Below are positions 6,782-60,705 of a stretch of DNA of 64,000 nucleotides, in pieces. Each line of letters starts with the position of its first letter. Within the stretch, counting starts at the first letter, position 1. The position numbers were made by a program, and so were the translations under genes. The notes beneath the pieces were generated by a model. It worked only from the letters and a program-made list of their open reading frames with translations, was not told the DNA's origin and did no database searches. Origin of the DNA: Tubulanus polymorphus (Eukaryota; Animalia; Nemertea); contig NC_134029.1 in assembly GCF_964204645.1 (NCBI RefSeq), positions 15,494,950 to 15,558,949 of the forward strand, in the 5' to 3' direction.

Positions 6782-7829
6782 GTAGGTTATTAATTGATAT
6801 TGCGATGGGCATTCCTGCCATATGCCCTTACGAGTAATTAGTTCAACATGACGGTACATTAAATGGGTTCTAATTATTGACGTCCATAGCCCCATTCGTC
6901 CATTTACGCATTATATGGGGTGTGCTTAATCCTGCCGATGTATTAGGCTGTTACGTTCGATGATAGTTCTCAATCCTGGTGTACTTTTAGTAGAAATTAT
7001 ATTTGGTCTAACCAGTATTTGCTCGGTGTTGCCATATCACGGAAACACGGAATGTCGGAATTCCGCGATTCCATCATTCCCCGATACGACAACACCGGTA
7101 TTGCTAGCAGAAAAGTAACGCCTATATTTAGCCTATGGATAATGTTCGAAGATCACCGCGATCAGGCGAATGATAATACTCGCTTCGTATACATAATTCC
7201 CTGTAATTTGAAAAAAAGATTTCTCTCACCGTCAGTTCTGTGTTCGTTCCATACCGCGTATTCCTTCCAAACCGCCCATTCCTTTGAACTCATACGCTAG
7301 GAAAATACATTTACATTTGGCTTCATCTTGAAGCGACGTATTTTAAGCCAAACTTAAGTTATCCATATTTGAGATATAAATTATGATGATTAGCTGAAGA
7401 AAGCGATATTTTGTGTTAACACCACTACTAAATTGGCATAATTGGCGTTTTGGTGCATAAAGTGTTGGTTTTTGGAGATGATCTACCAACTCCGAGAAAA
7501 GTACGCATTGCACGGAAGTAAATAGGAATGTGTTGTTCTAGATCAAGGGTCGTAAGGTCGAAAAATAAATTCTCGCACACTCGAATTTATTTTTCGACCA
7601 TCCAACCTTTGATCTAGAACAACACATTCCCATTTACTTTAAATGTAAATGTGTTAAATTCTTGATTTTAACATAAAAAGTAACGAGTGATTAACAAGTG
7701 AAAAATCGCGTCGAGAAAACAGTGAATATTTATATTTATATGTGTTAAATTCTTACTTTAACATAAAAGTAACGAGGAATAAACGCGTTGATGAAAATAT
7801 CAATTTTAATAAAAAATTTGATATTAAAA

Positions 7830-8122
7830 TGGAAGCAAATAAGTACTACTGTCCAACATGTAAAATAAATATAGATAAATCTCAAAAATCAAGACATGAT
7901 AAAACTAAATCTCACTTAGAGAATAAATTAAAGTTAGAATATAAACATGATATATTAGAAAATAAATTAGAAGAATTAAAGAATGAAAAAGAAATATATA
8001 AATGTGATACATGTAATCAATCATTCAGTGAAAAAAGATATCATAAAGAACATTTTAAGTCTAAAACTCATATTAGAAATATGAATAATGAGTTAAATAA
8101 TATAAAAAGTAACGAGTACTGA
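7830..8122 (+). CDS. Truncated pPolB N-terminus (two zinc fingers) in element A
   Basis: MEANKYYCPTC...RHDKTKSH...YKCDTCNQSFS...HFKSKTH is near-identical to the start of the pPolB at 15133. Confidence 0.75.
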
Positions 8123-8278
8123 AGAAAATATCTATTTTAATAAAAAAATGACTAATAAATTAATGAACAGATACTTCAGTTTAAAGATATCGATTTAAAT
8201 GAATTAGAAAAATATTTTACAATTAAAAATTTCATTCCTATTAAAGAATCGATTAAAACTGCACGTTTTCGTTTTCAA

Positions 8279-8734
8279 GTGAATAATATTACTGAATTAA
8301 TGTTTAAAAATCATTATGTTATGATAGAGTTATCGAATGAAAAAGATAAAATCTTATTCAATACAATAATTCCAAAATTCACAACATTTGATGAAATAGA
8401 TCACCATTTAATAATTACAGATGAAATGCAATCACTTTTTAATAATGAAAATTCACATAAAACATTATTTCTACACTTACGTTATTGTCCTTTCAGAGAA
8501 TGCTATGTAATGTTTTTCAGAGTAGAAGAGAAAAGATTCATCCCCGACATTCCAAACGAAAAATCATTTAAAGATGTTGCAGTTCATTGTAATTTAGGCA
8601 ATAAAATCGAAACACCTAAATATGAACCTAATGAAAAAGTGTTATGTAATTGTGGAAAATATTATACTCGAAGCAATAAATCACACCATCTTAAATCGAA
8701 ATATCATAACTCAAAAATAATAATTCAACTCTAA
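8279..8734 (+). CDS. Hypothetical protein with C-terminal CxC...H...H zinc-finger-like motif (element A; true start probably upstream)
   Basis: 151-codon ORF ending EKVLCNCGKYYTRSNKSHHLKSKYH; no counterpart seen in element B. Confidence 0.5.
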   Translation: MNNITELMFKNHYVMIELSNEKDKILFNTIIPKFTTFDEIDHHLIITDEMQSLFNNENSHKTLFLHLRYCPFRECYVMFFRVEEKRFIPDIPNEKSFKDVAVHCNLGNKIETPKYEPNEKVLCNCGKYYTRSNKSHHLKSKYHNSKIIIQL

Positions 8735-8785
8735 ATATTCAAAAATAATATATTTCAAATTACTTTTAATTTTTCTGTTAAATAA

Positions 8786-8941
8786 ATGAAAGATTTCAGC
8801 ATTCCAATTGGAAAAAATGATTTGAAGCATTATCTCATAGCAGGAGGGTTAATATTAGCTTCACTTTTCTTTTACTATGAAAATATTAGTAAAGATTTGA
8901 TGAATGAAAATATAAAATTAAGTAAAAAGTTAAAGAAGTAA
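8786..8941 (+). CDS. 51-aa single-transmembrane protein (element A)
   Basis: AAATAAATG start context; MKDFSIPIGKNDLKHYLIAGGLILASLFFYY...KKLKK; too short for the ORF track. Confidence 0.5.
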   Translation: MKDFSIPIGKNDLKHYLIAGGLILASLFFYYENISKDLMNENIKLSKKLKK

Positions 8942-9829
8942 ATGGGAATCAAAGAAATAAAAAAGTTAATGATTTAAATGATTTGCTGGATTAAAACAGC
9001 ATCTTTTAATTTAACTTATTTTATATATTTTAACTATAAAAATGAGTGAAAGTAAGGTATTAAATTTATTACATCTAATATATAGATTGTATTAAATACG
9101 TATTAATGTATTGAATACATATTATGCTTTATTTCTGAAATTGAAGTCTCAGAAGTAATTTATTCTTTCATGAAATTAAATATTTGAATTGAATAAAATA
9201 AATAAAGAATTGAATAAAAAAACATTAGAAAAACAATAGAATTGAATAAGTTAGTTGGCTTATTGTTTTTCTTGTCAAATGTAAAGAAATTTAAAGTAAA
9301 CAAGAATTAAATAAAAAACATTAGAAAAACAATAGGTTTCTTTAACTCTGACTAAATAATACTAACTTATTCAATTGTATTGTTTTTCTAATGTTTTTTA
9401 TTCAATTCTTATTGATATTAAATAACTTTGCATTTGACTAGAATAATACTAGAAAAACAATAAACCAACTAACTTAGTATTGGTTAAAGAAACCTAGTCA
9501 AATGTGAAGAAATTTAATTTCATGTATGAATAAATCACTTCTGAGACTTCAATTTCAGAAATAAAGCATAATCTCGCACACTCGAATTTATTTTTCGACC
9601 TTACGACCTTTGATCTAGAACAACACATTTACTCACGGAACTGGTTTTTTTTTCGTACACGTTGTAGTTTTTAGACCCCCAAATTTCGGCACCATAGTCC
9701 AATATCGGCGTTACTAGAGTATTGTACAATTTCGTGAAAGTTTCAAATTGTAGCCCGTAGGTAGCTAGATGTTGTGCGACTCCCAGAGTTTGCTAGTGCG
9801 GATACAAAGAACGCAAAGTTTAAACAATA

Positions 9830-10812
9830 GTTCAGTTCTAGACCCAGTTAACGGTAGGAGTCGGTGTATTCCACTACTTTATACCCGAGTTTTGAATTCG
9901 AATTTAGATTGATGAGCGCGGACGTGCCTGAATTGCATGGTTTTTGTTTTTTCTAAATTGATTTTCATCTTCCATTTTTTTGTCCAATTATCAACTATAT
10001 CGAGCATTTTTGTAGTCCCGCCTCATTTTCGCTGATCAGTACAATATCGTCTGCTTAGAGTAGGGTGTTGATATATCTATCGCCTAACTTTACCCGCGTT
10101 AATTTTGTTAATTTCGTTCGCTAAGTCATTAATGTAGACAGAAAAGAGGGTAGGGCTCATCCCATCTCGCTGCCTCGAACCACAGTTAATTTCGAAGTCA
10201 TCCATATAAAAGCCATTGATTCTTACACAGCTTTGCATATCCCGACAGAGATTTTTTAAGATAAAAAATTTCCATTGAGTCCTAAGTTTTGGAGTTTGTA
10301 AAACAAACAGAGATGGTTAATAGAATCGAAAGCCTTCGCGAAGTCTATGAAACAGGCAAAGGTTGGTTGCTTTTGTTCCTTCCTATTACGGATTATTGAC
10401 GTAAGGGCAAATAGGTGGTCTATACAGTTTTGGTTTTTGCGGAATCCATTTTGCTCGTCGCATAATGATCAGGTATTTTCCAGGAATGCATTTGATCGAT
10501 TATTCAAAAAAGTCGTGAACAGTTTATATACCGTTGATAATAGACTTATTCCTCTATAACTTAACGGCTTTAATGGATCTTTGCCTTTCTTTAAAGGGTG
10601 AATTATACCACGTCTCCATGCGTTGGGAATAACACAGTTATTTAAACAATTAATGTAGTATTCAAGAGATTTAATCGGATTTTAATATTTCGTAAATTGG
10701 AATGTTGTCTATCCCGACGCTTTTACACAACTTTAGACTTTTTATCGCTTTTAACGTTTCTTCGAATTTAATTGGCTCGTTCAGGAAATTGCGGTTTAAT
10801 GAGACGTCCTGC
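9830..10812 (-). pseudogene. Degraded LINE reverse transcriptase fragment
   Basis: Reverse strand reads motifs like YRGISLLSTVYKLF, QNGFRK, CFIDFAKAFDSINH..LFYKL and INTLL*ADDIVL. Confidence 0.8.
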
Positions 10813-10814
10813 AT

Positions 10815-13401
10815 GATGGGTGAGAAGTCGATTATTGATGTTAATGAAAATCAATATTATTGCCCATATTGTAAAAAATACGTCGATAAATCTCATAAAG
10901 CACGACATGAAAAAACTGCAAATCATTAAAAAAATATAATAGATTTTGAAACACCAGAAAATTCCAATGAAAGAAAAGAACAATTAGAAAATATGAAAAA
11001 AGATGAAATAAAATTTAATATTTGTAATGAATCTATAGCAAAAAGGAATTATAAAAGACATCTCGAATCACATAAACACCAACAAAATTTGAACAGAACA
11101 GAATATTTTGATGATAAACCTCAACAAGTAAAAAGACCAGCTTCAAAATCTAAATATATATCAAATAAACCTTACACGGAAAATATTCGAAATTATATCG
11201 ATTCGCTAGAAATAAAAGATACGATTGAAATTTTAGAAACATTGCCTAGTAAAATTGGCCCTGCAGCTATTATATTTAGATTTCTCAAAGGATCAACAAT
11301 AGAAGATTATAGCAATTACATTGAAATAATGGAAAAAATAATGGACCTTATTACAGATGTTGAATATCCAAAAATTAGTATCTCTGGAAAAGTAAGTTTT
11401 ATAAAGTCAGAAGAAAAAATGGATTATAATATTCAAACATATTCTTAAGAAATAATTTTAAAAACACAAATAAAAGAGAAGTTAGAAATAATATTAAATG
11501 AATTTAAACGTCATATTGAAGAAAGATATTTTGAGGGTTCTGGTTTAACATTGAATGAAATTAAATTTTTGGATTTAAATATTTATAATACAAAAAGGAA
11601 TAAAGCATCAACAAGTAATCAAATGTTTACACATGATTCTGAACAAGAGAAAAGGACTTTAAAGCATCATCTTATATTAAATTAAAAAAAGCAATTTTTA
11701 AAATCAAGGGACAAAGGAAATGAATTAAATGAAGACATAGTTCAGGACCTACCAATTATAAATACAATTTAATAAGTTCATCAAAGATCTGCTGCTTATG
11801 AAATTTATATAAAATCAAATTATCCTGAATTATATGAAAGTCAATATATTTTTTTTAGAGGTGAAGATGTAGTAAAGGAATTTTGCAATAAAATAATTGA
11901 ACTAGAAAGTGCTTTTGCACAATTATTTAACAAAAATGAAAGAATAGTTATGACAAAAGAAGATGAAATTGATTTTAATTATGCAACTCATTGTTGTTAT
12001 TGTGAAAAACGTTTTTATTCGTTTGATAAAAAAGTTAGAGATCGTGATCATTTAAATTCAAAATATCATGGAGCTGCCAATGAAGACTGTAATTTACAAG
12101 CTAAAAAGTAAATTTCGTACCAATATTGTTTCATAATTTATCAGGATATGATACCCATCTATTTATAAAACAATCATCTGGAAAATTAGGTGCAATTAAT
12201 CAAGAAATAGAAGAATATAATGCTATTAATGACGCAAATGTGAGAAAATATGATTTTAAACTATTAGTTAAGACATTTGAAAATTACATTTCATTTCAAT
12301 TTGGTTGTTTGAGATTTTTAGATTCTTATAGATTTTAAGCAAGTTCATTAGATAATTTAGCAAAAGGTTTAGTTGATAATGATTTGTTATAACTCGACAT
12401 TATTATCCAAATGAACAAAATTTTAAGTTATTGAGATATAAAGGTGCAATTCCTTATTCATTTTATAAAACACACGATGATTTTAATGTAATAGAATTAT
12501 AAAAAGAACTATTTTATGATCAATTAAAAGAGGAGTACGTGAAAGATGAAGTTTTTGATAGAACATTAAATATTTGGAATCATTTTAAGATAAAAAATCA
12601 TGGTGAATTTGTAGATTTATACTTAAAATCAGATGTTATGATAATGGCTGATCTATTTAAAAAATTTTGAGGAGTTAATTTAAACCATTTTAATGTTGAT
12701 CCTTGTTATTGTTATTCAAGTCCTGGTTTAACCTGGCAATGTGGTTTAAAATATACAAATCTAGATTTAGATTTATTAAAAGAATCAGGCATGGTTTTAT
12801 TATTTGAAAAATCAATTACAGGTGGAATTAGTGGTGTTATGGGAAATAGGTATTTTAAAGCAAATGATGGATATAAATTATTAAATTTTAACGCCAATAA
12901 TTTATATTGTTGGGCAATGATGCGACCCCAACCAAATAAAAATCTTATATTAACAGAAGTTAAAAGTTATTGAGCCGTAGATGATAGTTATCTAAGTGAA
13001 TATGAGAAAAAAATAAAACCGGAAGACCATGTTTTTACAGAAAAATTAATATTAACACAAAATAATAAATACAATTATATCGTTCATTATAGAATGTTAA
13101 AATTTTATCTAAAACAAAGAATGAGATTAAAGAAAGTACATAGATATATTGAATTTGATCAATCGAAGTGGTTATAAAAATATATAGATTTTAATACTAA
13201 ACAGAGAACAATATCTAAAACAGATTTTGAAAAAGATTTTTTTAAATTAATGAATAATACTTTTTATGGAAAAACATGTGAACATATTAGAAATAGAAAT
13301 GATGTTGTAAATAAGTAAATAATTCTGAACGATTGAGAAATTTACAATCAAGTCCTAGACACTTAGGAAATAAAAGATTTGAAGATTATTTAACAGCAGT
13401 T
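10815..13401 (+). pseudogene. polB: Degraded, internally deleted Polinton pPolB (older divergent copy C)
   Basis: Zinc-finger N-terminus, IGPAAI.F.F.KG, FHNLSGYDTHLFIK, FGCLRFLDSYRF, SITGGISGV...NANNLY, FFKLMNN.FYGKT; collinear with 15133-22180; many stops. Confidence 0.88.
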
Positions 13402-14575
13402 AGTAATTGGGAATGTGTTGGTTCAGGCCAAAGGTCGAGTGAGTAAAGAAATGAAAAATAAATTCGAGCGCGCGATCTTTTAACCTGAACCAACACATTC
13501 CCAATTACTCTAATAATTCCATATATATGAATAACATATAAATGAATATTATATTAAATGAAATCAATTTTAATAAAAAATTTGATATTAAAATGGAAGC
13601 AAATCAGAAGTACTACTTTTCAACATGTGTGGGTGCCGTACGGAACCGTCATCACTCATTTATTTTAGTTAATTTTTGTTCTGATTCATTTTCTGTTTCA
13701 CCGTTTGGGTGTCGTACGGCGCCATCTGTTTCGTTCTTACCTGATTTATATTCTATAGGTTTGATATTCGAAAATGTTATGACACCAGTAGAAATTAATG
13801 TCATAACCGATCCTAATTGGAATGAAGCATTACCAACCCATTTTTGTAATTCAGTCATAACTAAGTAGTCATTTTTCAAATCACTATATAATTTATTTTC
13901 ATCATCAATTGACATTAACCGGTTACATAATTTTGAATAACATTTGACAATACCATCTGAATTAGAATCATTTATTCGGGCTAATCTTGCCTCTTCATAA
14001 ATCTTTAAATATTTTATTACTTTATCTGGTTTCATAGCATCTAATTCTTGAAAAGTTATTTTTTCCCAAGAAATCTTTAGATTTCCCTCCGGCAATTAAT
14101 AATTCAAGATGATGCTTACAATATAAGTAGTATTCATAATCAATACTGTTATTAACTTGAGTACAATTAGTTACAACTGTATCTTTATTATCACTTATAC
14201 CCAAATCATCTAATGTTTTTTTCAATATTAATACTATTCTTATTAGATTTCTTTGACATTTATATAGGAGAAAAAGCAAGAAAAAAAAATATTATAAGTA
14301 CTATAAAATGATACCAGTATCTCTTTGGGTTAATACTAAATTGACTAGGTAGTATTCAGATTTGTCACCACAAGGGTGTTGTCCATCCTTTGAAGCGCGG
14401 AAGTGAACACATGATTCACAATATTGACGGAATGTCCTGTAAATACAGGGAAAAGATAATGTTAAATCATGATTAAAAAGGCCCGTAAAAAACAGAGAAC
14501 GAGAATTTAAAGCTGTTTTATAAAGAATGATACCTAGGAATAATGTCACGAACATAATTTTGTGAAGGTCTTACT
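13402..14575 (+). mobile_element. Deleted Polinton derivative D inserted into pPolB copy C
   Basis: Hairpin end AGTAATTGGG...CCCAATTACT (13402-13509), then the pPolB start, then a copy of the 33090-33780 region; ends TTACT; GCAGTT on both sides (13396-13401, 14576-14581). Confidence 0.65.
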
Positions 14576-14647
14576 GCAGTTAGGGAGCATCTCAAAATTT
14601 CGACACCGGTTCCTATACTAATAACTCGCGTATAGGGGTGGTCTGTC

Positions 14648-15246
14648 AGTAATAGGGGTAATGGGCTTTCAGATCAAAGGTCGAACGGTCGAGCTCATTA
14701 AAAAACAAAACATTAAAAGTAATTAAAAACCATAATATATTTTCATAACCGTGTGCATTTTATATTAAAAACTAAATATTTATTCTAAGATATCAATAAT
14801 TTTAAAAGCATATTGTATTAAATCAATTGGTCGCTCCACTTCGCTACCGCTCCGCTCCGCGACCAATTGATTTATTTACAATACACAAATTCATATAATC
14901 AAATATATTCAAATAATAATAATTATTCTATTATTCAACTGAAATACACACGGTTATGAAAATATATTATAGTTTTAAATTACTTTTAATATATGTTTTT
15001 AATGAACTCGACCATTCAACCTTTAACCCGAAAGCCCATTACCCCTATTACTCTTAAAATATTCATATAAATGAATAACATTTAAATCATTGAACTTCTA
15101 AAATCAATTTTAATAAAAAATTTAGTATTAAAATGGAAGCAAATAAGTACTACCGTCCAACATGCAATATCAATATAGATAAATCCCAAAAAGCAAGACA
15201 CAATAAAACTAAAACACATTTATAGAATAAATTGAAACTAGAATAT
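14648..15246. repeat. Left TIR of B (~599 bp); the first ~405 bp form an imperfect palindrome
   Basis: Inverse of 35890-36488 with roughly ten mismatches by eye; 14648-14756 pairs with 14946-15052; apex AATCAATTGGTCGC...GCGACCAATTGATT. Confidence 0.95.
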
Positions 15247-15719
15247 AAAGATGATATATTAGAAACTAAATTAGATGAATTAAAGAATGAAAAAGAAACA
15301 TACAAATGTGATACATGTAATCAATCATTCAGTGATAAAAGATATTATAATGAACATTTAAAATCTAAAAGTCATATTAGAAATAAGAATAATGATATTT
15401 TAGGTGATGATTATTTTGATAAAGATAATGATAAGAAACAGAAGACAATTAAAAGCATAGAAAATAAATTAAACAATAAAAGACCATACATGGAAGATGT
15501 AAGAAAATATATTAATTCATTAGATAATAAAAAAGATATAGAGATAACCGAAGCATTTAAAAGTGATATTGGCCCAGCAGCTATCGAGTTTAAATTTCAT
15601 AAAGGAAAAACATTAGAAGAAAATAAAAAACATTTAGAAAATATGAAAGAAATAATAAAAATAAATATAGCTGCAAAGCAGCGATAACGGGTTTTCTGCA
15701 CAGTCTTAGAATCCTGTTC

Positions 15720-15960
15720 AACGGTGGATTTCAACAAAGCATTTGATAAGGCTCAACATCAGCCATTACTAAACAGGCTATTAGGAAACAGTATCAATGA
15801 TAGGTCGCCCAAATGGCTCAGCAGTTATCTCTGAACGGAAACTTGTAACCGAAATCAACGGAACGCCTCATCTTGAAATGAGACGGTCTAACTAGTGGAG
15901 TCACGCAAGGTAGTATCCTAAGCCGTCTTCTGTTTAATCTCCTGACAAATGACATACACA
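15720..15960 (+). pseudogene. LINE RT fragment inside the HINE
   Basis: DFNKAFDK..H..LL and SGVTQGSILS.LLFNL motifs. Confidence 0.7.
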
Positions 15961-16042
15961 GTAATCCAAAATATACCAGACCGAGTAAATTTCCAAAACG
16001 ACCTTAACACACTGTTCGACCAAAAAACTTAATGTTCCGACA

Positions 16043-17975
16043 AAACCACGGGCGACAAAACCAAAATTATGAATTGTCGCGGGTGACAAAACCAAAATAT
16101 TGAATTGTCACGGGTGACAAAACAAAAATAATGAATTGTCGCGGGCGATAAAACCAAAATAATTAATTGTCGCGGGCGATAAAACCACAATAATGAATTG
16201 TCGCGGGCGTTAAAACCAAAATATTGAATCGTCGCGGGCGATAAAACCAAAATAATGAATTGTCGCGGACGGCAAAAACAAAATAATGAATTGTTGCGTG
16301 CGACAAAACCAAAATGATGAATTGTCGCGGGCGACAAAACCAAACTAGGGGTCCAGGGACACCATGCTCACTTGGGAAGTGGTTTCAAATGCTCAACTAT
16401 CTAACAATTTAAATACATAACGCCCTCTAGTGAGCATATACAAAAACCAATGACCTTGAAACCCACCACAATCATAGAACATGTGAGCAGCTATGATTTT
16501 GTAATTGATTGTGATAACAAAATATGCCTCGTTACCAATTTAATATGGAAATACTAAGTTATTCTACTATTCAACGCCCTCTGGTGACCATATGCAAAAC
16601 CCAATGACCTTAAAACTCACCACAATCGTAGTACATGGCATGAACTACATCTTAACAATGGATCATGGTAACAAACTATGCCTAGGTACCAATCTAATAA
16701 GGAAAAACTAAGCTTTTCTACTATTCAATGCCCCCTGGTGACGATATGGAATAACTAATGTCCTTAAAAACTCACCACAATCATAGACGATGTCATGAAC
16801 TACAACTTTGCAATTGATCATGGTAACAAAATATGCCTTGGTACAAATATAATATAGCGATACTAAGTTATTGTATTATTCAACGCCCCCTGATGGCCAC
16901 ATACAAAAACCAATGACCTTGAAACTCACCAAAATCATAGAACACGTTATGGGCTACAACTTTCCAATTGAATATAGTAACACAATATGCTTAGGTATCA
17001 ATTTAATGTGGAAAAACTTTTTCCCACCTACGAATGAGTACTGATGACACCAAGATGGCCGCCAATTGCGTCATAATTGTCTGATCAAAATACCTGTCCC
17101 AGGTATAAAACATCCCTCTCTAAAGAATACCCATCAGCAATTGCAATGAGAAATGGCAAACCAGTAGGAAGCTACAGGACCTAGAATTCTGGCCAAAATT
17201 GACATTTTTGGGCACTAAAAAGGTCATAGGACGGCCATCTTGAGTCAGATCGACCCAGATGGGCCTTTGGTAAATTCAAATATAAACGAAAGATCAAGGT
17301 ATTTGATCAAAGCGTCTTCAAAATTTCCCTCGAAAACTTCTAAAATGTGTAAAAAGTGCTGATTATGGCAAACAACAATGGCTGCCAGTCGACCATCTTG
17401 AATCTGACAGGGCCAGTTTTTGGGCTGACGATGTGTCTAGGGTAGATACATGTATAAACCAAATATCAAGACATTACCTTGAAGCGTCTTCAAAACTTCC
17501 CGAAATAACTGGATTCCGTCTATGGACGGACGGACGGACGAAAAGTGAACGCAATAGCCCGCTGGGACTAAAGTCCCAAGTGGACTGAAAAAGAATTGTC
17601 GCGGGCGACAAAACCAAACTAATGAATTATCGCGGGTGATAAAACGAAAATATTGAATTGTCACGGGCGACAAAACCAAACTAATGAATTGTCGGGGGCG
17701 ATAAAACCAAACTATGAATTGTCGCGGGCGATAAAACCAAAATAATGAATTGTCGCGTGCGACAAAACCAAACTAATGAATTGTCGGGGGCGATAAAACC
17801 AAACTATGAATTGTCGCGGGCGATAAAACCAAAATAATGAATTGTCGCGTGCGACAAAACCAAAATAATGAATTGTCGCGGGCGATAAAACCAAAATAAT
17901 GAATTGTCGCGGGCGATAAAATCAAAATAATGAGTTGTCGCGGGCGATAAAACCGAAATAATGTTTTGTCGCGTT
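16043..17975. repeat. ~31-bp minisatellite (AAAACCAAAATAATGAATTGTCGCGGGCGAT)n, split by a nested HINE
   Basis: Head-to-tail arrays at 16043-16343 and 17593-17975. Confidence 0.92.
16344..17590 (+). mobile_element. DINE-1/Pearl-like HINE with ~153-bp core tandem repeats
   Basis: Subterminal inverted repeat CACTTGGGA (16369) / TCCCAAGTG (17574); four ~151-155-bp repeats 16420-17030; (GGAC)n at 17523; 3' hairpin TGGGACT-AA-AGTCCCA. Confidence 0.8.
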
Positions 17976-20900
17976 ATTTTAGTTTTGTGGTTTTGTCATA
18001 ATGTCGCCCTCATTTGCATATACGTGTTTTTTTTTACGCATGGCCCTTATCAGCCACCATACTAAAGCCTTAAGGTCGCGTAAAACTCGATAAACACTTC
18101 AAGCGACACAGCGAACGATCTCCTTTCCCCTACAGCGAACGCTTAACCTAGTAGAGGCTACTAGCCTATGTAGGCCTATGTATATGCGTAGGCCTAACAT
18201 CCGGACAGATTGGTCGTAGGCCTATTGAATTTAACAACCCACCTTAATATCGTAAATTTTGTTTTGAAGTTCAATCCAATGAGTCCGTTAATAAACGCAA
18301 CAATTGTACTGCGTTTGTTTGATACAGTAAAGCTCAGTACCGGTAGGCCTAAAGCCGCGTCAAACTCGAGAAACACTTCAAGCGACACAGCGAACGATCC
18401 CTTTCCCCCACAGCGAACGCTTACTCCGAATGTCAAGTGAGTCCAGCATACGGATAGGAGTGTGTTATATACTTGTATTTAGTAAATAACTTGTGCATTT
18501 GACAATGATCGGTATGTACTGTAGGAAATATAGAGTATTGATGGTATTGATATAGAGGTTGAAGCCCGCGGCCGAATAAAGTAATATATTCTTTTATTTT
18601 GATACCTCGTCGACATAACAGCTTTTCTCCGCTATATCTCTTCGGCGTGTTTAGTTTAGGCCTACGATTCCCCGGTACACTAAAGATTTATCTTAGTAAA
18701 TACACGGTTAATTCGGTGAAGAAAAATAGGTATTGTTAAACTAACTCCTTGAAACCCGCAGCCAAATCACTAGTAGTAATAAATTAATTTGTACTCGATT
18801 TGATTCTCATGATGAGGAGAAACTCGCAGCTGATCCCCGGAACGACGATGTAGTAACACACGTCGATTCGTCGATGTTTACGGCTCGACAGAGCTTTTAA
18901 AATCTAAAGTAGTAAATTTCCAGTGTATCGGTAATATGATTTGATGAGGAAAATGGGCTATTGTTAAAATCACTGTTTGAAGACCGCGACTGAATTTGAA
19001 GTCTTTCGGCAATAAATTAGTTCATTTATACTTGAATTGATAATCGAAGTGACAGTCGGCCTGCGGGTTGATTTCGGGATGACGACTCGAAAAACATGTC
19101 GCCCCATTGAATGGGGCTAAATTTTCGATGTTTACGGCCCGACAGCCCTTTTGTAACGATGATTCGTGAAAAAACACGCGGGCTATTTGTAGATCTCAGT
19201 GAGCTGAACGATATTATATGGATTGTATATGAAACAGTGGTAAGGTAACAAAGCCTATGTTCTTTTGGTAAAAATAGTGTGGAAGAAAATAATAATAATA
19301 ATAATCACGCGGATATCAATAGGGTTTTCTGTGAAATAACAGAAAACCCTAATAACTGATGTTGAATATCCTAAAATAAGTATATCTTCTAAAGTTAAAT
19401 TCATAAAATCTGAAGATAAACCAATATATAATATAAATTCTCATTCACAACATATTATATCTAAACAACATATAGATGATAAATTAGATAAATGTTATAA
19501 TGAAGTAAAAACTAAAATAGAAGAGAAATATTTTGAAGGATCTGGTTTAATATTTGATGAGATAATATTTATGACTTAACATGTTTATAACACAAAATAT
19601 AATAAGTTAACTAAATCAAAACCAATTGATGAAAATAATTTATCATATTATAAAGATGATAGTATAAATGGAACAAGTTATATTAAACTACCATTTAAAA
19701 CTAATGCTGTAATAAATGTACAAAATTTTGATGATAAATGTTTTCTATGGGCTATAATAAGTTGTTTACATCCTGCAACTTATAATATTTGTAGATTAAC
19801 TCATTATAAACCATTTGAAAATAATTATAAGATAGATAAGTATCCTGTTAGAATTGAAAACATCCCAAAAATAGAAAGAGATAATAATTTAAGAATAAAT
19901 CTATTTGATTTAATCAAATTACCAAATACAAAAGGTAACAATATAAGACATTATACATTAGAACCTTTATATTTATCAAAAGATTATGATTCAAATGATG
20001 TTATAGATATATTATATTATGAAAACCATTATATGTGGATTAAACAAATCGATTTATTTTTTAAATCAGAAAATGATCACCATAAAATATATCTTTGTAG
20101 AAAATGTTTACATAGATTCAGTAATGAAAGTACATTATTAAATAATAAACAATTATGTGAAAATCATGATTATTGTAAATTAGTTTTACCAAATGAAAAG
20201 GATAAAATATTAGAATTCAAAAAATATGATTACAAAAATAAAGTACCATTTGTTATATATGGAGATTTTGAATCATTAAATAAAGAATTAACTGATCAAG
20301 ATAGAAAAGAAATATATTATAAAAGAAAGAAATTAAATTCTAATGAAAATGATTTTTCAGATGAACCACCAAAAACAAATACTATTAAAAAGATTCATCA
20401 ATCAGCTGCTGCTTTCGGGTTATATATTCAATCTGATTATCCAGAACTAATTAAAAGTGAATATTATCATTATAGAAATGAAAATGTTATCCATCATTTT
20501 TGTGACTTATTAATTGAATATGAAATAAGATTTAGTAAATTATTGAATACAAATATAGAAATTATAATGACAGAAGAAGATAAAGAAGAATTTGCGTTTG
20601 CAGGTAAATGTTATTATTGTGAAAAGATATTTAATAATAAAGATAAAAAAGTAAGAGACCATGATCATTTGAATGGAAAGTTTAGAGGCGCTGCACATGA
20701 GAATTGTAACTTACAAGCTAAGAAAATTAACTTTGTGCCAGTTATATTTCATAATCTATCAGGATATGATGCACATTTATTCATCAAACAGTTATGCCAT
20801 AAAATAGAAGAAATCAATAATGAAATAGAAATATTAAATTCAAATAGATCAAAAGATAAAATACCAACTTATAAATTTAGAATGTTAGCTAAAACATCTG

Positions 20901-22889
20901 AGAATTATATATCATTCCAATTTGGTTGCCTAAGATTTATAGATTCATATAGATTTTTAAATAGTTCATTAGATAACTTATCAAAATCATTAGTTGATGA
21001 TGAATTAAAAATATTAAAGCAACACTACCCAAATAATGATGATTTTCAATTAATGAGATATAAAGGAGCAATTCCATATTCTTTCTATAAAAATCATAAT
21101 GATTTTAACATAACTGAATTATTGAAAGAACAATTCTATGATGAATTAAAAAATGAATATGTTAAAGATGAAGTATATAATAGAACATTGAATATTTGGA
21201 ATCATTTCAAAATAGAAAATCATGGGCAATTAGTAGATTTATATTTAAAATCAGATGTATTATTATTAACCGATATATTCGAAAGGTTTAGAGATGTAAA
21301 CCTAAAATATTTCAATATTGATCCTTGTCATTTTTATTCATCACCAGGATTAACATGGGATTGTGGATTAAAATTTACAAATATAAAAATGGATTTGTTA
21401 ACAAATATAGATCAATTACTATTATTTGAAAAATCTATAAGAGGAGGTGTATCAGGTGTATTAGGTGATAGATATTTCAATGTAAATGATAATCCTGGAT
21501 ATAAGTTATTATATATAGATGCAAATAATTTGGGCAATGATGGAACCACAACCTTATGGAGTATTTGAATTAACTGAAGTTTTACAGAATGAAAATAATG
21601 ATAAATTTGATTGGAAGAAAAGAATTCTAGATATTGCAGATGATTCAGATACTGGTTACTTCTTTGTTGTAGATTTAGAATATCCTGAACATATTAAATT
21701 TAAATCTAGAAATCTAGCATACTGTCCAGAACATAAAACTGTAACTCATGAAGAATTATCAAATTATCAAAAAAGAATTAAACCCGAAAATCATATTCAT
21801 ACAGAAAAGTTAATGGTAACTCAAGAAGATAAATATAATTATGTAGTACATTATAGAATGTTAAAGTTTTATTTGAATCAAGGAATGATTCTAAAAAAGT
21901 ACATAGATATATTTCATTTAGTCAATCTAAGTGGTTAGAAAAATATATAGATTTTAACACCAAACAGAGAACTAAAGCTAAAACTGATTTCGAGAAAGAT
22001 TTCTTCAAGTTAATGAATAATGCATTCTATGGTAAGACTTGGTGAAACTATGACTATGGTGAAAATATTAGAAATAGAAATGATATTGAGTTAGTTAGTA
22101 ATGGTAAAAGAATTAGACATTTACAATCATATCCTAAGTTCATTGGTAACAGAATATCTGATGAAAATTTAGCCGCAGTTAACATGAGAAGAACATCAAT
22201 GAAATTTAATAAACCAATCTATGTTGGCGCTTCAGTTTTAGAATTATCAAAATTACTAATGTATGAATTCTATTATAATGTATTACAACCACTTTTTGGA
22301 GAAAAACATATAGAAATATTATATTTTGATACAGATTCTTACATATTAAAGATAAAAACTGGTAACATAACTGATGATTTAAAAACATTAAAACATCATT
22401 TTGATTTTAGTAACTATCCTAAAAATCATGAATTGTTTAGCAATGATAATAAAAAAGTTCCCGGTAAATTCAAAGATGAATTAGGTGGCGAAGAAATGAT
22501 AGAGTTCATAGGTATTAGATCTGTATGTATTCATATAAAACTAAAACTCATGAAGCTAAAAATTTAAAAGGAATAACCAAAAGTGTAGTAGAAAAGAATA
22601 TTCATTTCAAAGATTACATCAATTGTTTATTCAATGAAGAAGTTAGAAAACATAAGATGAGATGTTTAAGATCTGAAGATCATGAAATGTTTATTGAAGA
22701 AATTGAGAAGATAAGTCTAAACCCATTTGATGATAAAAGATATATTTTAGATGATGGAATTCATACAGTTGCTTATGGTTGTAATTTAGATGAATACTTA
22801 AAATTTAAAAGAGAAGAAACAAAAGAGAACGAGATAATGAAAAGAATTCTAACGTGTTAATCAAATTTTAATAAAAATATGTTATTAAA

Positions 22890-23243
22890 ATGGAGAGTAA
22901 ACAAGCACACAGTGAGAACAACAAATTATTTCTAGATAGAATTAAAGATACTACAAATGTAAAATCTGTAGATTATAAATTCAAAATGTTAACAGAATTA
23001 ACAATCCATAAAAAATATCTAATTACAAATATTGTTACAGTTACTAACAAATATGGAGATAAATTAGTTATACACTTAGAATATGAAGGATTAAAAGGAA
23101 ATACATATAAATTCAGAACATATTTACCGGATAGATTTCATAGATTATCAAGTGAAGATTTAGAAGAATTATGTTCTGGTGATTTCTATTTCGTATACAA
23201 AGGTAACAATGAAAAAGGGCACCATGAAATAGATTTCGAATGA
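22890..23243 (+). CDS. 117-aa protein downstream of pPolB, possibly OB-fold ssDNA-binding
   Basis: Intact ORF, homolog in copy F (49963-50296); NKYG..LV.HL...F.TYLP.RF pattern; function is inference. Confidence 0.6.
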   Translation: MESKQAHSENNKLFLDRIKDTTNVKSVDYKFKMLTELTIHKKYLITNIVTVTNKYGDKLVIHLEYEGLKGNTYKFRTYLPDRFHRLSSEDLEELCSGDFYFVYKGNNEKGHHEIDFE

Positions 23244-28551: not shown

Positions 28552-29798
28552 ATGAGTGGGAGTTATATCAATCCTTCTAAGAATCATAGAATATCTAATG
28601 CTATTAAAGCAGAAAGATCACATCATATAATTACTCATAACCCTTCTAATATTAATCCTGATGAAACTTTATATGTTAGAATTCCTCGATTAACACAAAA
28701 TACTTTTTACGTTCCAAATAGTATTTATTTATCAGCTGATATAAAAGTAATCGGTAATAATAATAATTATGTTGTTGATAATGTTGGAAGATATTTGATT
28801 AAAAAGTTAACTATAAGATCGGTCCAGAAACAGTTTTCTCATTAGATGATTATAATTTATTTATGCATTATAAAGATTTATGGTTTACTAAAGAAAATAG
28901 AAATAATATGATATTTCAAGGCATCCAATCGGAAAACCAAAATAAATTAAGATCAGAAGCTAATAGCGCAATATTAACTAATGCTGTAGATAAATTGATA
29001 AAAAGTATATATGGAAGCAAATATAAAATTCCATTAGATTTTGAATTGATAAATAATAATGCACCTTTATATAAATACGCAATTCAAGAAGACGTTATAT
29101 TCGAAATAACATTTGCTCCTGTAAATGAAATTGTATTATCTAGCGTTAATAAAGATATGAGTTATAAATTATCGAATATATGTTTAGAATATGATACAGT
29201 AACTGATGAAAATATTTCAAGTATAATTCAAACTCAATACAATCAAGGATTTTCATTATTATATGATTATATTGATAAATTTAAAACCGTAACTATTAAT
29301 GCGAATGATGAAATAATTAATGAGAATATTAACTTCCCAAGAAGATCTATTAAAAGTATATTAATATTTTTTACCATTGCAACATATACTAATGGCGCAA
29401 TAAATGTTGATAATTATTATAATCCTGATATAACAAAAGTAGAAATAACTATTGAAGGAATAGCAAATAAAATATTTTGTCAAGGAATGAGAATGATAGA
29501 TCAATGGCCAGAAATTAGAAAACATTTTATGAATGAAAAAGTAAAATCATCTGAAAATTGTAATATTAATCAAATTGATTATTATACCGGTAATAAATAT
29601 GCATTATGGTTAGATTTTAGAAAAACAGAGGATAATTCATTACATGTTTCTGGAAAAAAACTACAGAACACTAAAGATGGAATACAATTATTCATGACAA
29701 AGAATAAAGGAATCAAAAATTTTAAAATGTACATTTATATTATATCTGACGCGCAATTAAATATTGTAAATTCTCAATTAAATAGTGTTATGTATTAA
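28552..29798 (+). pseudogene. Major capsid protein (double jelly-roll), one frameshift near 28820
   Basis: ~415 codons, beta-rich; HNPSNINPDETLYVRIP.L, YKIPLDF, YKLSNICLEYD, INENINFPRRSIKSIL.FF, YALWLDFR; position in the structural module; no search run. Confidence 0.78.
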
Positions 29799-31035: not shown

Positions 31036-31641
31036 TTATAAATTTATATTCATAGGGAAATTGAAATCTCAGTAATAATTTTGAACCTTTACTATTCTTC
31101 AATTTATTCATATATTCATCATGTAATTCAGTAGGTATAATTTGATTTTCTTCCAATGATTGTTGCATAGATTTTTTATCTTTGTTATAAAATAAAACTA
31201 GAATTCTTATATTCTCCCAAAGTCTTTAACAATTGAATTATATTTTTGATTTAAAACCCATGTTGTTATCCCGAAATGTCTTCCAGAGAAAGCTAAATAA
31301 CATAACTCACTTTCTCTAACTTATGAATCATGTAAATTTGCGCAATCATCTATAATGAATAATGTATTTGATCCTTTATAAGTATCAATTGCTATTTTTA
31401 TACAATTATCTAAATTTTCTTTTACTGTTTTAGGATTTAATATAATAAACTTTTTCATCTTAACTATATCTCTATTATATGTTTTATTCATTTCATAAGT
31501 AGGACAAAATAATATTATATTATCAAAATGATTCTTATAAATAGTTTCTAACAAATCTAATATGAAATGTGTTTTACCACAATTGGTTACTCCAGTAACT
31601 AACATATTATGCGGTTCAAATATAAATAAATCTTTATTCAT
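31036..31641 (-). pseudogene. A32/FtsK-like DNA packaging ATPase
   Basis: Walker A MLVTGVTNCGKT and Walker B LFIIDDC; premature stop at 31321, followed by LAFSGRHFGI. Confidence 0.9.
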
Positions 31642-32732
31642 TTATTCTTTTAATTTTACTAGATAAAATCCATTCATTAAATTTATCATCATATCCTTTA
31701 TATTTCACCAAAGAATACTTTTTTCCTTTAAGAGTTTTTGTTTTCAATACTTTTTCTATTTTGTATTCTATTTCATCTGGGTTTGGTACAAGTGATAATT
31801 CTTGTTCATAGAAATAGCCTAATATTTCTTCATCTTTTAAATCTTCTAATTTATAAACAAAATGTTTAGTTAATATTATCTTTTTAATCTTGAATATTTC
31901 TTCTGTAAAATTAGGGGTATAACCTTTATAAAAGGTTTTTCTATATTTAGATATTCTTACGTGTTGTCCAATTTTGAATCTAGGATCTCCGAAATCATGT
32001 GTAACAAACGCTCCATATAAATTATTCCAAACTATTTCTGAATTATCTTCTTTTCTAGCTTGTATAGGTTTCATATTTATAGAACTATGTTTAGAATTAT
32101 TATAACCTTTCACTAAATCATCTAACATATTTATAGACTCACCGATATATTTATATGTTTCATTAGCAGTAAAATATTTCCACATTCTAGTTTTCAATGT
32201 TTTATTAAATCTTTCTATAATAGATGCTTTTTTATCTGAGTGTGTTGAAAAATAATCTACATCGTTATCAGATAATAGTTTTTTAAAATGTTTGTTATAA
32301 AATTCCTTACCTTCATCAAATTGTATCTTATCTGGAATAGTTTCTTTAAATATAGATTTAAAAGCATTTGTTACTTCTATACCAGTTTTATTTTTGATTG
32401 GAATTGACCATGCGTATCTACTGAATATATCTATAACATTTAATATCCAGAAATATCCTTTGTTGTATTCTTCTAAGTTCTTCATGTCAATTAAATCTGC
32501 TTGCCATTGTTGATCAATATATGAAACCATAACTTTTCTTGTTAAATAAGTTTTACCCATTTTCTTGTGGATTTGATATGTTGGTTGATTTTGTAACCAT
32601 GATTTTAATTCACTATATTTTATACCACCATTATCAGATTTAATTTTATTCCATAATTCTGAAACGTTAGAATATGATACTTCACTTTCTGGGTTATAAT
32701 ATAAATCTCTTAAATATTGTTCTTTTTTTCAT
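31634..32732 (-). CDS. int: Retroviral-like (RVE) integrase with C-terminal chromodomain; frameshift close to the start
   Basis: WQADLIDM, IDIFSRYAW, IQFDEGKEF, IERFNKTLK (DDE); F.KGYTPNFTEEIF; YKIEKVL...LVKYKGYDDKFNEWI chromodomain. Confidence 0.93.
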
Positions 32733-33944: not shown

Positions 33945-34610
33945 TTAACCACTCATTAAAGACTCAATATGTTGTTCATTATTTGGATCATTGTTCCATA
34001 ATTCAATGAATTTCTTTGCTTTATCTAATTGATCCAAATATAACTGTAAATCTAGTTTATTAGATTTGATTTGATTTTCTTTCTTTTCTAAAGGCCTTAA
34101 ATTCTTCCAATTCCAAATAAGTTTTTTATTGTATTCATCATTCATGTTAAATTTAGATATTGGTAACACGTGATCAATATGGTAATAATCCCCATAATTA
34201 TCTATATTCATTTTATCATCGAATTGATATATTATCCATGATTTGAGAAATTCATCTGAACAACCTAATAGATTAGATAGTGTTTCTGAATGTGTTTCTT
34301 TGTTGAATAATTGTGTTAATCTAGACCTTAAGCATTGTTTTAATCTAAAATTAAGATCTGTTTGATATCTTTCTCTCATATATTCTGCCATATAATGATT
34401 ATAATGTTCTATATTATCTTCTCGATATTGTTTAGTATATAGTTTAGTGCAAGTTTTACAGCAATATTGAAAACCATCTTTGCTAATCTTACGCTTACTA
34501 AATTCTGTTAATGATTTATCTAATTCACATTTAGAACACTTCTTGTAGTATATATTTATAACACCAGTGTTATTTGTAATATTGATAATTTGTGGTTGTT
34601 CTGGTTCCAT
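33945..34610 (-). CDS. HNH endonuclease of the type common in large DNA viruses, with N-terminal zinc ribbon
   Basis: KKCSKC..KSL.EF...KDG...CKTC; LRSRL; LLGCS; DNYG..YHIDHVLPISKF...WNWKNLRPL...EN..KSNK. Confidence 0.82.
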   Translation of the reverse strand: MEPEQPQIINITNNTGVINIYYKKCSKCELDKSLTEFSKRKISKDGFQYCCKTCTKLYTKQYREDNIEHYNHYMAEYMRERYQTDLNFRLKQCLRSRLTQLFNKETHSETLSNLLGCSDEFLKSWIIYQFDDKMNIDNYGDYYHIDHVLPISKFNMNDEYNKKLIWNWKNLRPLEKKENQIKSNKLDLQLYLDQLDKAKKFIELWNNDPNNEQHIESLMSG

Positions 34611-35889: not shown

Positions 35890-36488
35890 ATATTCTAGTT
35901 TCAATTTATTCTCTAAATGTGTTTTAGTTTTATTGTGTCTTGCTTTTTGGGATTTATCTACATTGATATTACATGTTGGACAGTAGTACTTATTTGCTTC
36001 CATTTTCATACTAAAATTTTTATTAAAATTGATTTTAGAAGTTCAATGATTTAAATGTTATTCATTTATATGAATATTTTAAGAGTAATAGGGGTAATGG
36101 GCTTTCGGGTTAAAGGTTGAATGGTCGAGTTCATTAAAAACAAATATTAAAAGTAATTTAAAACTATAATATATTTTCATAACCGTGTGTATTTCAGTTG
36201 AATAATAGAATAATTATTATTATTTGAATACATTTGATTATATGAATTTGTGTATTGTAAATAAATCAATTGGTCGCGGAGCGGAGCGGTAGCGAAGTGG
36301 AGCGACCAATTGATTTAATACAATATGCTTTTTAAATTATTGATATCTTAGAATAAATATTTAGTTTTTAATATAAAATGCACACGGTTATGAAAATATG
36401 TTATAGTTTTTAATTACTTTTAATGTTTTGTTTTTTAATGAGCTCGACCGTTCGACCTTTGATCTGAAAGCCCATTACCCCTATTACT
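35890..36488. repeat. Right TIR of B, with terminal palindrome 36084-36488
   Basis: Reverse complement of 14648-15246. Confidence 0.95.

Positions 36489-40205: not shown

Positions 40206-40208
<3 letters not shown>

Positions 40209-40291
<83 letters not shown>
40209..40291. repeat. (TA)n microsatellite
   Basis: About 40 perfect TA units. Confidence 0.97.
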
Positions 40292-40294
<3 letters not shown>

Positions 40295-47900: not shown

Positions 47901-48146
47901 TAAAGGTGTTAATGGACTGAATATTGCTAGAAATGTTATTACAGAACTAATTGTAACTGAACCACTGATAATAAAATAAAAGATAATTTTACTTTTTAAA
48001 TATTTTTTCTTTTTTATCTATAAGTCACTTTCAAATTCTAATATTTGTTTTTCTAAATATATTTTTAATTTAGTTTTATTTATATCATGAGGAATGATAT
48101 CAATATTATCAACTTTATCATCCATTTATTTAGCAAAAAAGAGTTA

Positions 48147-49944: not shown

Positions 49945-51518
49945 TTTATTTTACATATTTTCTTATTCGAAATCTATTTCATGGTGCCCTTTTTCATTCT
50001 TACCTTTGTATATGGAATAGAAATCTCCAGAACATAATTCTTCTAGATCTTCACTTGATAATCTATGAAATCTATCTGGTAAATATGTTCTGAATTTATG
50101 TGTATTTCCTTTTAATCCTTCAGTGGATAACTAATTTACTACCATATTTGTTAGTAACTGTATCAATATTTGTAATTAGATATTTCTTATGGATTGTTAA
50201 TTCTTTTAACTTCTTAAACTTATAATCTACTGATTTGACATTTGAAGTATCTTTTATTCTATTTAAGAATTCACTGTGTACTTGTTTACTCTCCATTTTA
50301 ATAACATATTTTTTATTAACATTTATTTTAGAAGTTATTAGATTAATATTTTAAGAGTGATAGGGGTTTAGTTGTTCTAGATTAAAGGTTGAAAGGTTGA
50401 GTGAGTAAAAAATGGAGGCGGGTCATACTAGTTATTTTTCATTTTTTATGAGCTCGACCTTTCGACCTTTGATCTAGAACAACTAAACCCCTATTACTAA
50501 CGTAAATTGATTTACGAATAGAATTAATCGATTGACTCATTTTAAGGATCATGGTTTCGTGAAATTCATTAAAGTTCTAAAATTTGCGATCAATTTAAGC
50601 CGAAAATGATTTCAACTATCCGCCATGTTGACACTTGTTCGCGGTAAATTACGGATCCGGACTGATAATTAGTCTGAATCCGTGATTTACGGTTGAGTTT
50701 GACGCTCGAGGTTCCTCCGGTATTTGTAGGCTTTTCGGGATGTACTTTTATCGATGGATGACAATGCTTTGGGTTATTTTTGTCGCAGTTTAAAACCGGA
50801 AATTACACGGGATTAATTCATTATAAATTACTGTGCGCAAATTCGAAATGGTCAGACGCTGAGTTATATTTCTGTCAGAATTGAAAATTACGTTTAAAAG
50901 TATTAGTAGTCGAATCTGAGAGGAGGTACATTTGATGAAAAAAATATTGTCTTGAAAGTGAAATAGGTAATAATCTCGAGAATTACAATAGGGTTTCTAC
51001 AAAGCAGCAGGAACCCTAAATATGCATAATTTGTATCTGTTTTCGTCTGACATCGTTCATTTGGGATATTTCTCTTTACCGTATAAAAACATATCTCAGT
51101 TTGGTCTTAACACAACCAGTGGAAGGGTGCAGTCTAACTAAATCATAGTTTTTATATCTAATTTATAATGTAGCATTTATTGAATTAAAGGTTTATTAAT
51201 GGTAACATACACATAACTCGTAATAGTGAAAATGAAAAAAAAATCCGTGTTTTTGGAGAATCCCGCCATTCCATGATTCCCCGATATGACAACACAGTTA
51301 GCACAAGCGAGCTACAGGGCCAATTGTCCGTCATTTCACATTAGATGTGTGTTAGTGCTGTTGCATTTCTGGTTTACCTCACACGTAAACACTACACATA
51401 ATATTAGCCTACGTAACATATTTCTGCGTGAATTTAAGTTATTTTATGTGTGTGAGCATATATCATGACCCGTGAACTGTCTGACTTGTGGGTTATTCCT
51501 GTCATAACAATTGACTAA

Positions 51519-60514: not shown

Positions 60515-60666
60515 AGTAATTGTATAGGCCTATATGTTGTTTCATACCAGAGGTCGAAAGGTCGAGCTCATAAAAATAAGAAATAAATTCTCGCACGCTC
60601 GAATTTATCTTTTATGTTTTACTCACTCAACCCTTCAACCTCTGGTATGAAACAACATATATACAA
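60515..60666 (+). repeat. Hairpin terminus of a further Polinton relative G
   Basis: AGTAATTGTAT...TGTTGTTTCATACCAGAGGTCGAAAGGTCGAGCTCAT / loop AAATAAATTCTCGCACGCTCGAATTTAT / CAACCTCTGGTATGAAACAACATATATACAA; last bases interrupted by a HINE. Confidence 0.8.
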
Positions 60667-60705
60667 ATATAGCTGCCAAGCAGCGATGACGGGTTTTCTG
60701 CAAAG
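60665..60705 (+). mobile_element. 5' end of another HINE of the AAATATAGCTGC family (3' end not located)
   Basis: AAATATAGCTGCCAAGCAGCGATGACGGGTTTTCTGC. Confidence 0.6.

Follow-up and report, generated by a model that had tools for sequence, protein, structure and literature searches.

The palindromes described here are the true ends of an animal Polinton, in the genome of the nemertean Tubulanus polymorphus; they are real and very probably functional. In the reading that we favor (probability about 0.5), each palindrome would be a local fold-back origin and a repair template for the element's TP-bearing pPolB, used together with protein priming. The window (the whole stretch of DNA analysed, 64,000 nucleotides of contig NC_134029.1) contains clustered, nested and decayed copies of a single AT-rich element family, and all coordinates below are those of the window unless a locus is named. 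Element B, whose parts are given first, is a Polinton by its pPolB, integrase, TIR and TSD, with a divergent capsid module.

14648-36488: element B as a whole, a Polinton with TIRs and a TSD
14642..14647 (+), repeated at 36489-36494: the 6-bp TSD of B, TCTGTC
15133..22860 (+): pPolB gene of B, with Zn fingers, TP, vOTU, Exo with an HNH/EndoVII insert, and palm
15665..19349 (no strand): host insertion, which we take to be Helentron/HINE-like, with central tandem repeats; it splits the pPolB gene of B
28552..29798 (+): ORF inside B
31321..31641 (-): A32-type packaging ATPase, N-terminal part, with a PF04665 match
31634..32728 (-): rve integrase with chromodomain (PF00665, E 1.4e-9, above the cut-off)
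33945..34610 (-): 221-aa ORF with an HNH-like motif by eye and no Pfam match

The TIRs of B are ~599 bp long and 98% identical (14648-15246 on the left and 35890-36488 on the right), and its tips read AGT...ACT, so that B has the TIR, the 5-8 bp TSD and the 5'-AG...CT-3' ends by which Polintons are recognized. The TSD encloses the whole element, not each palindrome separately. The first-pass annotation had spoken of an integrase plus pPolB virus, and the rve integrase and a pPolB with TP and vOTU domains are indeed present. The pPolB of B is broken by a 3.7-kb insertion, one stop and frameshifts; its domain order was taken from an intact relative (L002). The capsid protein of B has a homolog (P0129, 72% identical) that models as a double jelly-roll, and this model matches the SGIV/PBCV-1 MCP (E 4e-17); compared with one canonical Polinton MCP, the MCP is not detectably similar (hhalign probability 0.4). 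No adenain-type protease was found by Pfam or a seven-sequence HMM in the window or in the three closest relatives, in a search whose positive control was weak (E 0.048). Together with the MCP unlike the canonical one, this would point to a capsid module of PLV type, without a protease, in a lineage of animal Polintons (window and L001-L003, with the weak adenain control). The ORF at 23375-24004, which we take to be penton-like, has no Pfam match.

Other sequences share the window with the Polinton family. The presumed Helentron/HINE-like repeat has a short subterminal inverted repeat, a 3' hairpin and central 31-bp and 154-bp tandem arrays, and the same family is also present at 52798-52837 and ~60664-60705, the latter adjoining end G below. 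By eye, LINE reverse-transcriptase-like remnants lie at 10077-10681 (-) and an EGF-like host exon at 59269-59523 (+).

Seven ends of the family lie in the window; none of the palindromes is assigned to a strand.

14648..15052: B left palindrome, 405 bp, flush AGT...ACT, the outer part of the TIR
36084..36488: B right palindrome, 405 bp, same polarity as the left
7517..7638: A left palindrome, 122 bp
9572..9633: A right end, outer arm and loop only, the loop inverted relative to A-left
13402..13509: D palindrome, 108 bp, with a 26-bp perfect outer stem and a partly deleted inner arm
50356..50498: F palindrome, 143 bp, which ends a reverse-oriented, internally deleted copy (~43861-50498)
60515..60668: G palindrome, ~154 bp, its inner tip cut where a Helentron/HINE-like repeat starts

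The two B palindromes differ at five of 405 positions and both are imperfect. Folded as DNA, B-left reaches -100.4 kcal/mol against -25.9 +/- 3.7 for shuffles (z -20; none of 100 shuffles as good), and the A-left, D, F and G palindromes give z values of -9 to -17. In all five ends that have an inner tip, pairing is flush to the last base. The first-pass annotation had given AGT...ACT palindromes of ~405 bp at both ends of B and of 122, 108 and 143 bp at A-left, D and F, and had proposed folding the termini as single strands; all of these are real and form stable hairpins, D without part of its inner arm. For G the palindrome itself stands, and the complete AGT...ACT form does not, its inner tip being cut by the Helentron/HINE-like repeat; the right end of A (9572-9633) had been missed. 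Copy A (7517-9633, 2.1 kb) is complete and non-autonomous and has the TSD CACGGA, so that a 6-bp TSD is seen in both complete copies (B and A). The non-autonomous copies A and F have kept their ends. The F end is joined to the gene after pPolB via a shared AT-rich start motif (22864-22915; 50271-50336), the pPolB having been deleted. A separate 452-bp foldback (9121-9572, -118 kcal/mol) abuts the A-right loop in the place where the inner arm would be expected, and a repeat at 40202-40295, considered as a further element end, was rejected as a (TA)n microsatellite.

One explanation of such structures is that they are independent MITEs or foldback elements that happen to sit at the ends, an outcome that the first-pass annotation had named as fatal to its proposal and that is barely credible now. 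Genomic copies were surveyed through short reads and contigs; raw short reads from another individual, labelled as the same species (~12% of the run), were mapped on both ends of B. On the right, 1857+409 reads run out of the element into diverse flanks at 36488/36489 (agreement 0.34-0.36), and the left end gives the same picture, with 1761+371 reads leaving there. Position 36084, the inner tip, is absent from the six largest loose-end piles listed (the smallest being 238). Read depth is 1150-1400 at the palindrome center, ~1900 where reads cross the inner tip into viral subterminal sequence and 2-7 in the flank of the locus; by this rough depth ratio, ends of this kind number roughly in the hundreds in the genome. 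That flanks are diverse only at the outer tip, and that depth continues into viral sequence, mean that the palindromes are attached to the element, and the TSDs surround whole elements in two of two complete copies. End G, with no viral gene within ~2.5 kb, and the separate foldback in A would suit MITEs; for the bulk of the copies, the reads and the TSDs refute that reading.

The outer stems have diverged between copies and have stayed complementary, as the first-pass annotation had noticed. The set compared was B, F, A, D and G (B-right was omitted as a twin, and the damaged tip of G and the deletion of D were excluded). In alignment columns 13-33 these copies share only 10-15 of 21 bases (48-71% alike), yet 95 of 99 cells are paired; in the covariation test that it had proposed, applied to the window copies, 17 of the first 48 columns carry at least two different Watson-Crick pair types. 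Arm-to-arm copying without selection can also be a source of covariation in perfect stems.

The two arms of an end are not equivalent, as is seen from one short motif.

14679..14692 (+): tandem GGTCG motif of the outer arm of B; the inner arm has a C>T version

This motif has nine matches in the window, all of them in these ends (0.28 expected), and is intact in seven of seven outer arms. At alignment column 41, C stands outside and T inside in all four scorable subfamilies. The motif being intact outside and carrying C>T at the same place inside, arm polarity is fixed: whole-end flips were seen in none of the seven window ends and amount to less than ~10% in the reads. The conserved outer-arm motif (14671-14692 and the other outer arms) presumably resembles TCF/LEF (AGATCAAAG) and nuclear-receptor direct-repeat sites, and the hairpin of the distant locus L034 (15380-15440) contains several AGGTCA-type sites; these are possibly host-factor sites at the origin.

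The mismatches between the arms also favor one strand. The arms show 16 distinct mismatches, of which the 3'-end strand carries 11 as G.T wobbles and the other strand two, the remaining three being transversions; the bias of 11 vs 2 has a binomial p=0.02 when sites of related copies are counted as independent. The 3'-end strand folds better in five of six ends, by 13-15 kcal/mol in B. Three mismatch sites are CpG>TpG, and decay of CpG after insertion was rejected as the source of the mismatches because they are common to subfamilies and confined to the inner arm. A G.T (in RNA, G.U) bias on the outward-running strand would also suit an RNA hairpin, in which G.U pairs would help a transcript running outward to fold, and this transcript would supply small RNAs for self-control or stop read-through. 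This seems highly improbable: there is no Rfam match, and an RNA would have no need of pairing exactly flush to the DNA tip.

The centers invert sometimes, whereas whole arms in the window ends do not. The loop of A-right is the reverse complement of that of A-left, and the center of D matches that of G better when flipped (score 52 vs 31). In the reads, opposite-strand joints lie at mirror positions, with 19, 11, 16, 48, 10 and 8 reads (among 15 of 33 joints listed); part of them may be library chimeras, and one such joint is also present in a contig from another study. Variants at paired sites mirror each other at 36094/36478 (28%/22%), 36099/36473 (34%/34%) and 36186/36384 (23%/27%), three pairs among 27 listed variant positions in the palindrome, with frequencies known per site only from reads of 150 nt. 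These center inversions (A-right vs A-left; D vs G) and symmetric opposite-strand joints show that template switching takes place, and it could be that repeated switching at terminal initiation duplicated the tip inward and homogenized the arms, leaving a hairpin without any role. The varying palindrome lengths (108 to 405 bp) agree with such an origin, and an accidental origin is also raised by the authors of a preprint on Halocafeteria elements (10.64898/2026.07.28.741278, in the part accessible to us). Homogenization would erase the C/T asymmetry, however, and this is kept across subfamilies only 48-71% alike; in addition, the strand bias is opposite to that which deamination of a displaced 5'-end strand should leave, and hairpins recur in the distant Polintons discussed below. 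A by-product therefore seems to us quite unlikely.

The polymerase is of a type that would prime with a protein. In L002 (80% nucleotide identity to B) pPolB is one open frame of 1305 aa. Its modelled N-terminal domain has a four-stranded sheet and two helices and matches the LF/PAD domain found in polymerases of the Y family (Z 9.6, rmsd 2.9, 105 aligned), and a vOTU-like domain comes next (Z 5.2); the model is of the relative, not of B, and has a mean pLDDT of 68 from an alignment of nine sequences. According to the accessible part of Krupovic et al. (10.1101/2024.03.18.585575), LF/PAD plus vOTU is the arrangement of the Polinton terminal protein, in which a Ser or Tyr stands beside a Gly before the last strand. 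A G-S-G loop is kept in four of seven homologs and in window copies B and C, and the vOTU Cys motif in six of seven, the Cys/His motifs being kept. L002-type pPolB thus appears, on this model, to retain the terminal-protein fold with a predicted linking Ser. An HNH/EndoVII domain (PF02945) sits in the exonuclease region; HNH-containing pPolBs constitute the pPolB2 group in the accessible text of Jeong et al. (10.1101/2023.08.22.554363).

This EndoVII-family domain is one of three points in favor of a role in excision, in which a cruciform or stalled-fork fold would place a branch point at the host-element boundary, a junction nuclease would cut there, and fill-in from the nick would restore the full end with the same polarity. 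The others are that palindrome and element have their first base in common and that the orphan end G, with no viral genes, could be a donor-site remnant. We nevertheless regard excision as very unlikely to be what the palindromes are for. The bias favors one strand where a cruciform needs both, extrusion is inefficient when arms are mismatched and loops measure 12-24 nt or more, the origin of G cannot be read because a later insertion has cut it, and solo palindromes are at most a minority, given that depth at the inner tip continues into viral sequence.

Relatives were gathered by integrase alignment (80 metagenome, 2 viral and 10 genome loci). The closest, L001-L003, have integrases 62-83% identical and none reaches a terminus; L002 ends ~110 bp short of the start of the B palindrome. 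In L002 (145-7154) pPolB is followed directly, in the same direction, by the HNH-like ORF and the block with the integrase, an order that differs from that of B, and modules have therefore been rearranged within the lineage. L003 carries a deoxynucleoside kinase gene (10343-10981 (-), PF01712, E 1.7e-31). Scans of viral contigs with single proteins found no relative, and the terminal motif has four matches there, all inside unrelated sequence and about the number expected by chance.

Three ends of distant, protease-bearing Polintons (integrase ~38-42% identical) all have hairpins, and the assertion in the first-pass annotation that canonical Polintons have plain TIRs fails for these ends. L034 has a ~150-bp hairpin behind an unpaired AGTAGT (z -13), L102 a 46-bp hairpin behind AGTAGT (z -7 on the 3' strand) and L099 a ~80-bp hairpin with an uncertain tip (z -7 to -10), whose two sister ends both break off inside the palindrome. 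L034 and L102 came from a palindrome search, a biased sample that gives no frequency; the ends of G001 were found via its TIR, and in two of three the truncation lies within the palindrome. A strict scan, requiring a stem of 16 bp after AGTAGT, finds one of 220 sites in 94 loci (that of L034) and misses L102, and with the other eight hexamers it gives three matches, one being the same L034 site; its statistics are not useful. These few distant ends suggest that many Polintons have hairpins and that these go unnoticed because assemblies tend to stop at them. With AGTAGT left unpaired, the L034 and L102 hairpins cannot self-prime untrimmed, and their shape suits protein priming.

The small Polinton-like contig L081 (IMG/VR) has a 184-bp branched palindrome (4657-4840, z -13.6) between its integrase side and the start of pPolB. 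It reads ACTACT...AGTAGT, the reverse of an end, and in its middle a self-complementary 50-bp unit occurs twice in direct orientation; the palindrome could represent the junction of a circle or concatemer, with T-shaped ends like those of AAV. In L081 the integrase ORF has an N-terminal extension that is protease-like by eye, with no Pfam match. Near-complete eukaryotic Polintons were also met on contigs of bacterial MAGs (G001-G003: L084, L085, L091, L102 and L103), where they are probably host contamination.

The fold-back reading can be set out as a series of steps, all of them inferred from integrated copies and short-read WGS. After strand-displacement synthesis the 3' end of the displaced strand would snap back, its terminal ACT pairing with the inner copy of AGT, and the fold would give a predicted local duplex origin that does not require the pairing of ends 21 kb apart. 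With its Ser, the TP-bearing pPolB would start synthesis on the terminal bases, and the polymerase would unroll the hairpin and copy it faithfully, by which, we propose, polarity would be kept. Where the 3' tip had frayed or been chewed back, the inner arm would serve to refill it, and such refilling could be why the outer ~25 bp are perfect in every copy though the copies differ. Because the tandem GGTCG is mismatched, being intact outside and having C>T inside, it may bind a protein on one side only and so show the polymerase or integrase where the true end lies, and occasional template switches between the arms would invert the center only. Fixed polarity fits fold-back priming by a TP with faithful copying, and Streptomyces Palindrome I offers an analogy for it. 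Several observations count against this reading: the tip is AGTAAT, not a perfect short repeat for slide-back, D is an exception in folding slightly better on its 5' strand, and a flush paired 3'-OH is also an ideal self-primer, with no feature found that would stop its extension past the inner AGT.

The first-pass annotation had read the ends as the extended form of hairpin telomeres, implying self-primed or hairpin-transfer replication, or closed ends resolved before integration. Either symmetric hairpin transfer or the resolution of closed telomeres should leave either arm outside, and this is not seen. Closed ends predict flip and flop of whole ends, yet the same arm is outside in seven of seven window ends, so that part of the claim is not supported as it stood. 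From the other part it survives that the 3' end folds flush and could in principle self-prime, but not the symmetric transfer (flips at 0/7 ends and in less than ~10% of reads); the parvovirus-like reading is the less likely one.

Self-priming with one-sided resolution is a different matter. Here the flush 3' hairpin would prime the second strand as in parvoviruses, giving hairpin-closed monomers or head-to-head dimers, and a nuclease would cut only beside the arm with the intact GGTCG, so that polarity is kept and TP priming still serves the open end; the HNH/EndoVII insert of pPolB, the 221-aa HNH-like ORF and the integrase are candidates for the nuclease. The flush pairing in five of five ends with an inner tip, the folding bias of the 3' strand and the PF02945 domain in pPolB all speak for it, and the same model has been proposed for Halocafeteria elements (accessible part of 10.64898/2026.07.28.741278). 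The conserved mismatch asymmetry resembles the bubble of MVM, where resolution is asymmetric (PMC1185569, in part), and since one-sided resolution of the MVM type keeps polarity, fixed polarity is compatible with self-priming as well. Against it, Pfam and a motif scan give no HUH Rep (no Pfam match for an HUH nickase in 36 proteins and no HUH motif in B ORFs of at least 60 aa, several of these ORFs having no assignment), which leaves only the HNH domain on offer, and many Polinton pPolBs have an HNH insert, which is interpreted as the relic of a homing endonuclease in the accessible text of two preprints (10.1101/2024.03.18.585575; 10.1101/2023.08.22.554363). The TP and vOTU motifs are intact, the distant Polinton hairpins leave a 6-nt tail unpaired, and the Halocafeteria palindromes go mostly with non-pPolB replicases (10.64898/2026.07.28.741278, same part). 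We think it unlikely that self-priming of this kind is the way these elements replicate. A hybrid cycle, doubtful but worth keeping in mind, would combine protein priming at open ends with self-priming from tip-flush hairpins, one-sided cutting by the polymerase-fused nuclease either resolving hairpins or excising the provirus at a boundary cruciform. If it were true, nearly all Polinton ends would have in their terminal hairpins a working part that has been overlooked, and these hairpins would provide the handle so far missing on the exit of proviruses from the chromosome.

To our knowledge, neither the replication of Polintons nor their exit from the chromosome has ever been shown, and the ends described here offer a test of how Polintons copy themselves. 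They are short, defined substrates with natural controls (covarying stems, a fixed asymmetric motif, and flush vs tailed hairpins), by which protein priming vs self-priming becomes testable with oligonucleotides and one enzyme. Adenoviruses and tectiviruses replicate by TP-primed strand displacement, in which the displaced strand must rebuild an origin by pairing the two genome ends (panhandle); they pair two ends, whereas in the B family each end could act alone. The standard Polinton model likewise has the two TIRs pairing into a racket (Fig. 4 legend of 10.64898/2026.07.28.741278, in the accessible part).

Among Polintons, B is like the HNH-containing pPolB2 elements, so far as the accessible text of 10.1101/2023.08.22.554363 describes them, in its TP-vOTU-Exo-palm pPolB with HNH insert, rve integrase, A32 ATPase and DJR capsid, and in its TIR, 6-bp TSD and AG...CT tips; unlike them, the B-family TIR opens with a palindrome of 108-405 bp that is paired to the last base, and no adenain was found (weak control). 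In the parts accessible, hairpin ends in animal Polintons are not described in PMC11296320, PMC6431247, PMC12220804, PMC8502044, 10.64898/2026.10.13.758929, 10.1101/2022.07.28.501842 or 10.1101/2023.08.22.554363; earlier remarks are possible in the founding Polinton papers or in Repbase/Dfam. Casposons are pPolB-bearing integrating elements like B, but they are prokaryotic and use a Cas1 integrase, and the palindromes that some of their TIRs contain are described only as internal in the accessible part of PMC4046053. Bidnavirus ITRs are said not to form hairpins (PMC4061559, in part).

The B-family ends resemble parvovirus termini (AAV, and the left end of MVM, which is resolved asymmetrically; accessible text of PMC1185569) in their imperfect palindrome of 100-400 nt, paired 3' end and conserved mismatch. 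In silico folds give the terminal hairpin with paired 3'-OH of a parvovirus-type rolling hairpin, whereas whole-palindrome flip/flop is seen at 0/7 window ends and in less than ~10% of reads; parvoviruses need an NS1/Rep HUH nickase and the host polymerase, and in the B family no such nickase was found and the element has its own TP-pPolB. Nor are flip and flop isoforms present in equal share, as in poxviruses, or TSDs of the palindromes' own with independence from viral genes, as in MITEs or foldback elements. Streptomyces TP-capped telomeres are alike in having a palindrome at the very tip of a TP-primed end. There, Palindrome I forms a fold-back on the 3' strand that acts as a template for repair before being opened up so that the TP can prime; it differs in being 13 nt long, in depending on Tpg/Tap proteins and in patching ends after internal initiation, and the two are not homologous (PMC5449611, in the accessible part).

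Halocafeteria seosinensis virophages (subtypes 1, 2, 5 and 6) and the PLV of subtype 4 have palindromes in their TIRs next to the TSD, and a hairpin-priming model has been proposed for them (10.64898/2026.07.28.741278, in the part accessible). The first-pass annotation had named self-complementary ends as characteristic of parvovirus and poxvirus genomes; this preprint already describes terminal palindromes in protist virophages and PLVs. Palindromes in the TIR by the TSD and an rve integrase are common to these elements and B. The former have a protist host, a 52-nt palindrome in subtype 5 and mostly non-pPolB replicases (pPolB subtypes with palindromes may be listed in the supplements), whereas the B family has an animal host and has kept a pPolB with TP; polarity, strand bias and covariation are not described in section 7 of that preprint. 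Terminal palindromes and the hairpin-priming idea are thus known already from other elements, and what is new is tip-flush pairing over up to 405 bp, with fixed polarity, in an animal Polinton with a pPolB-TP.
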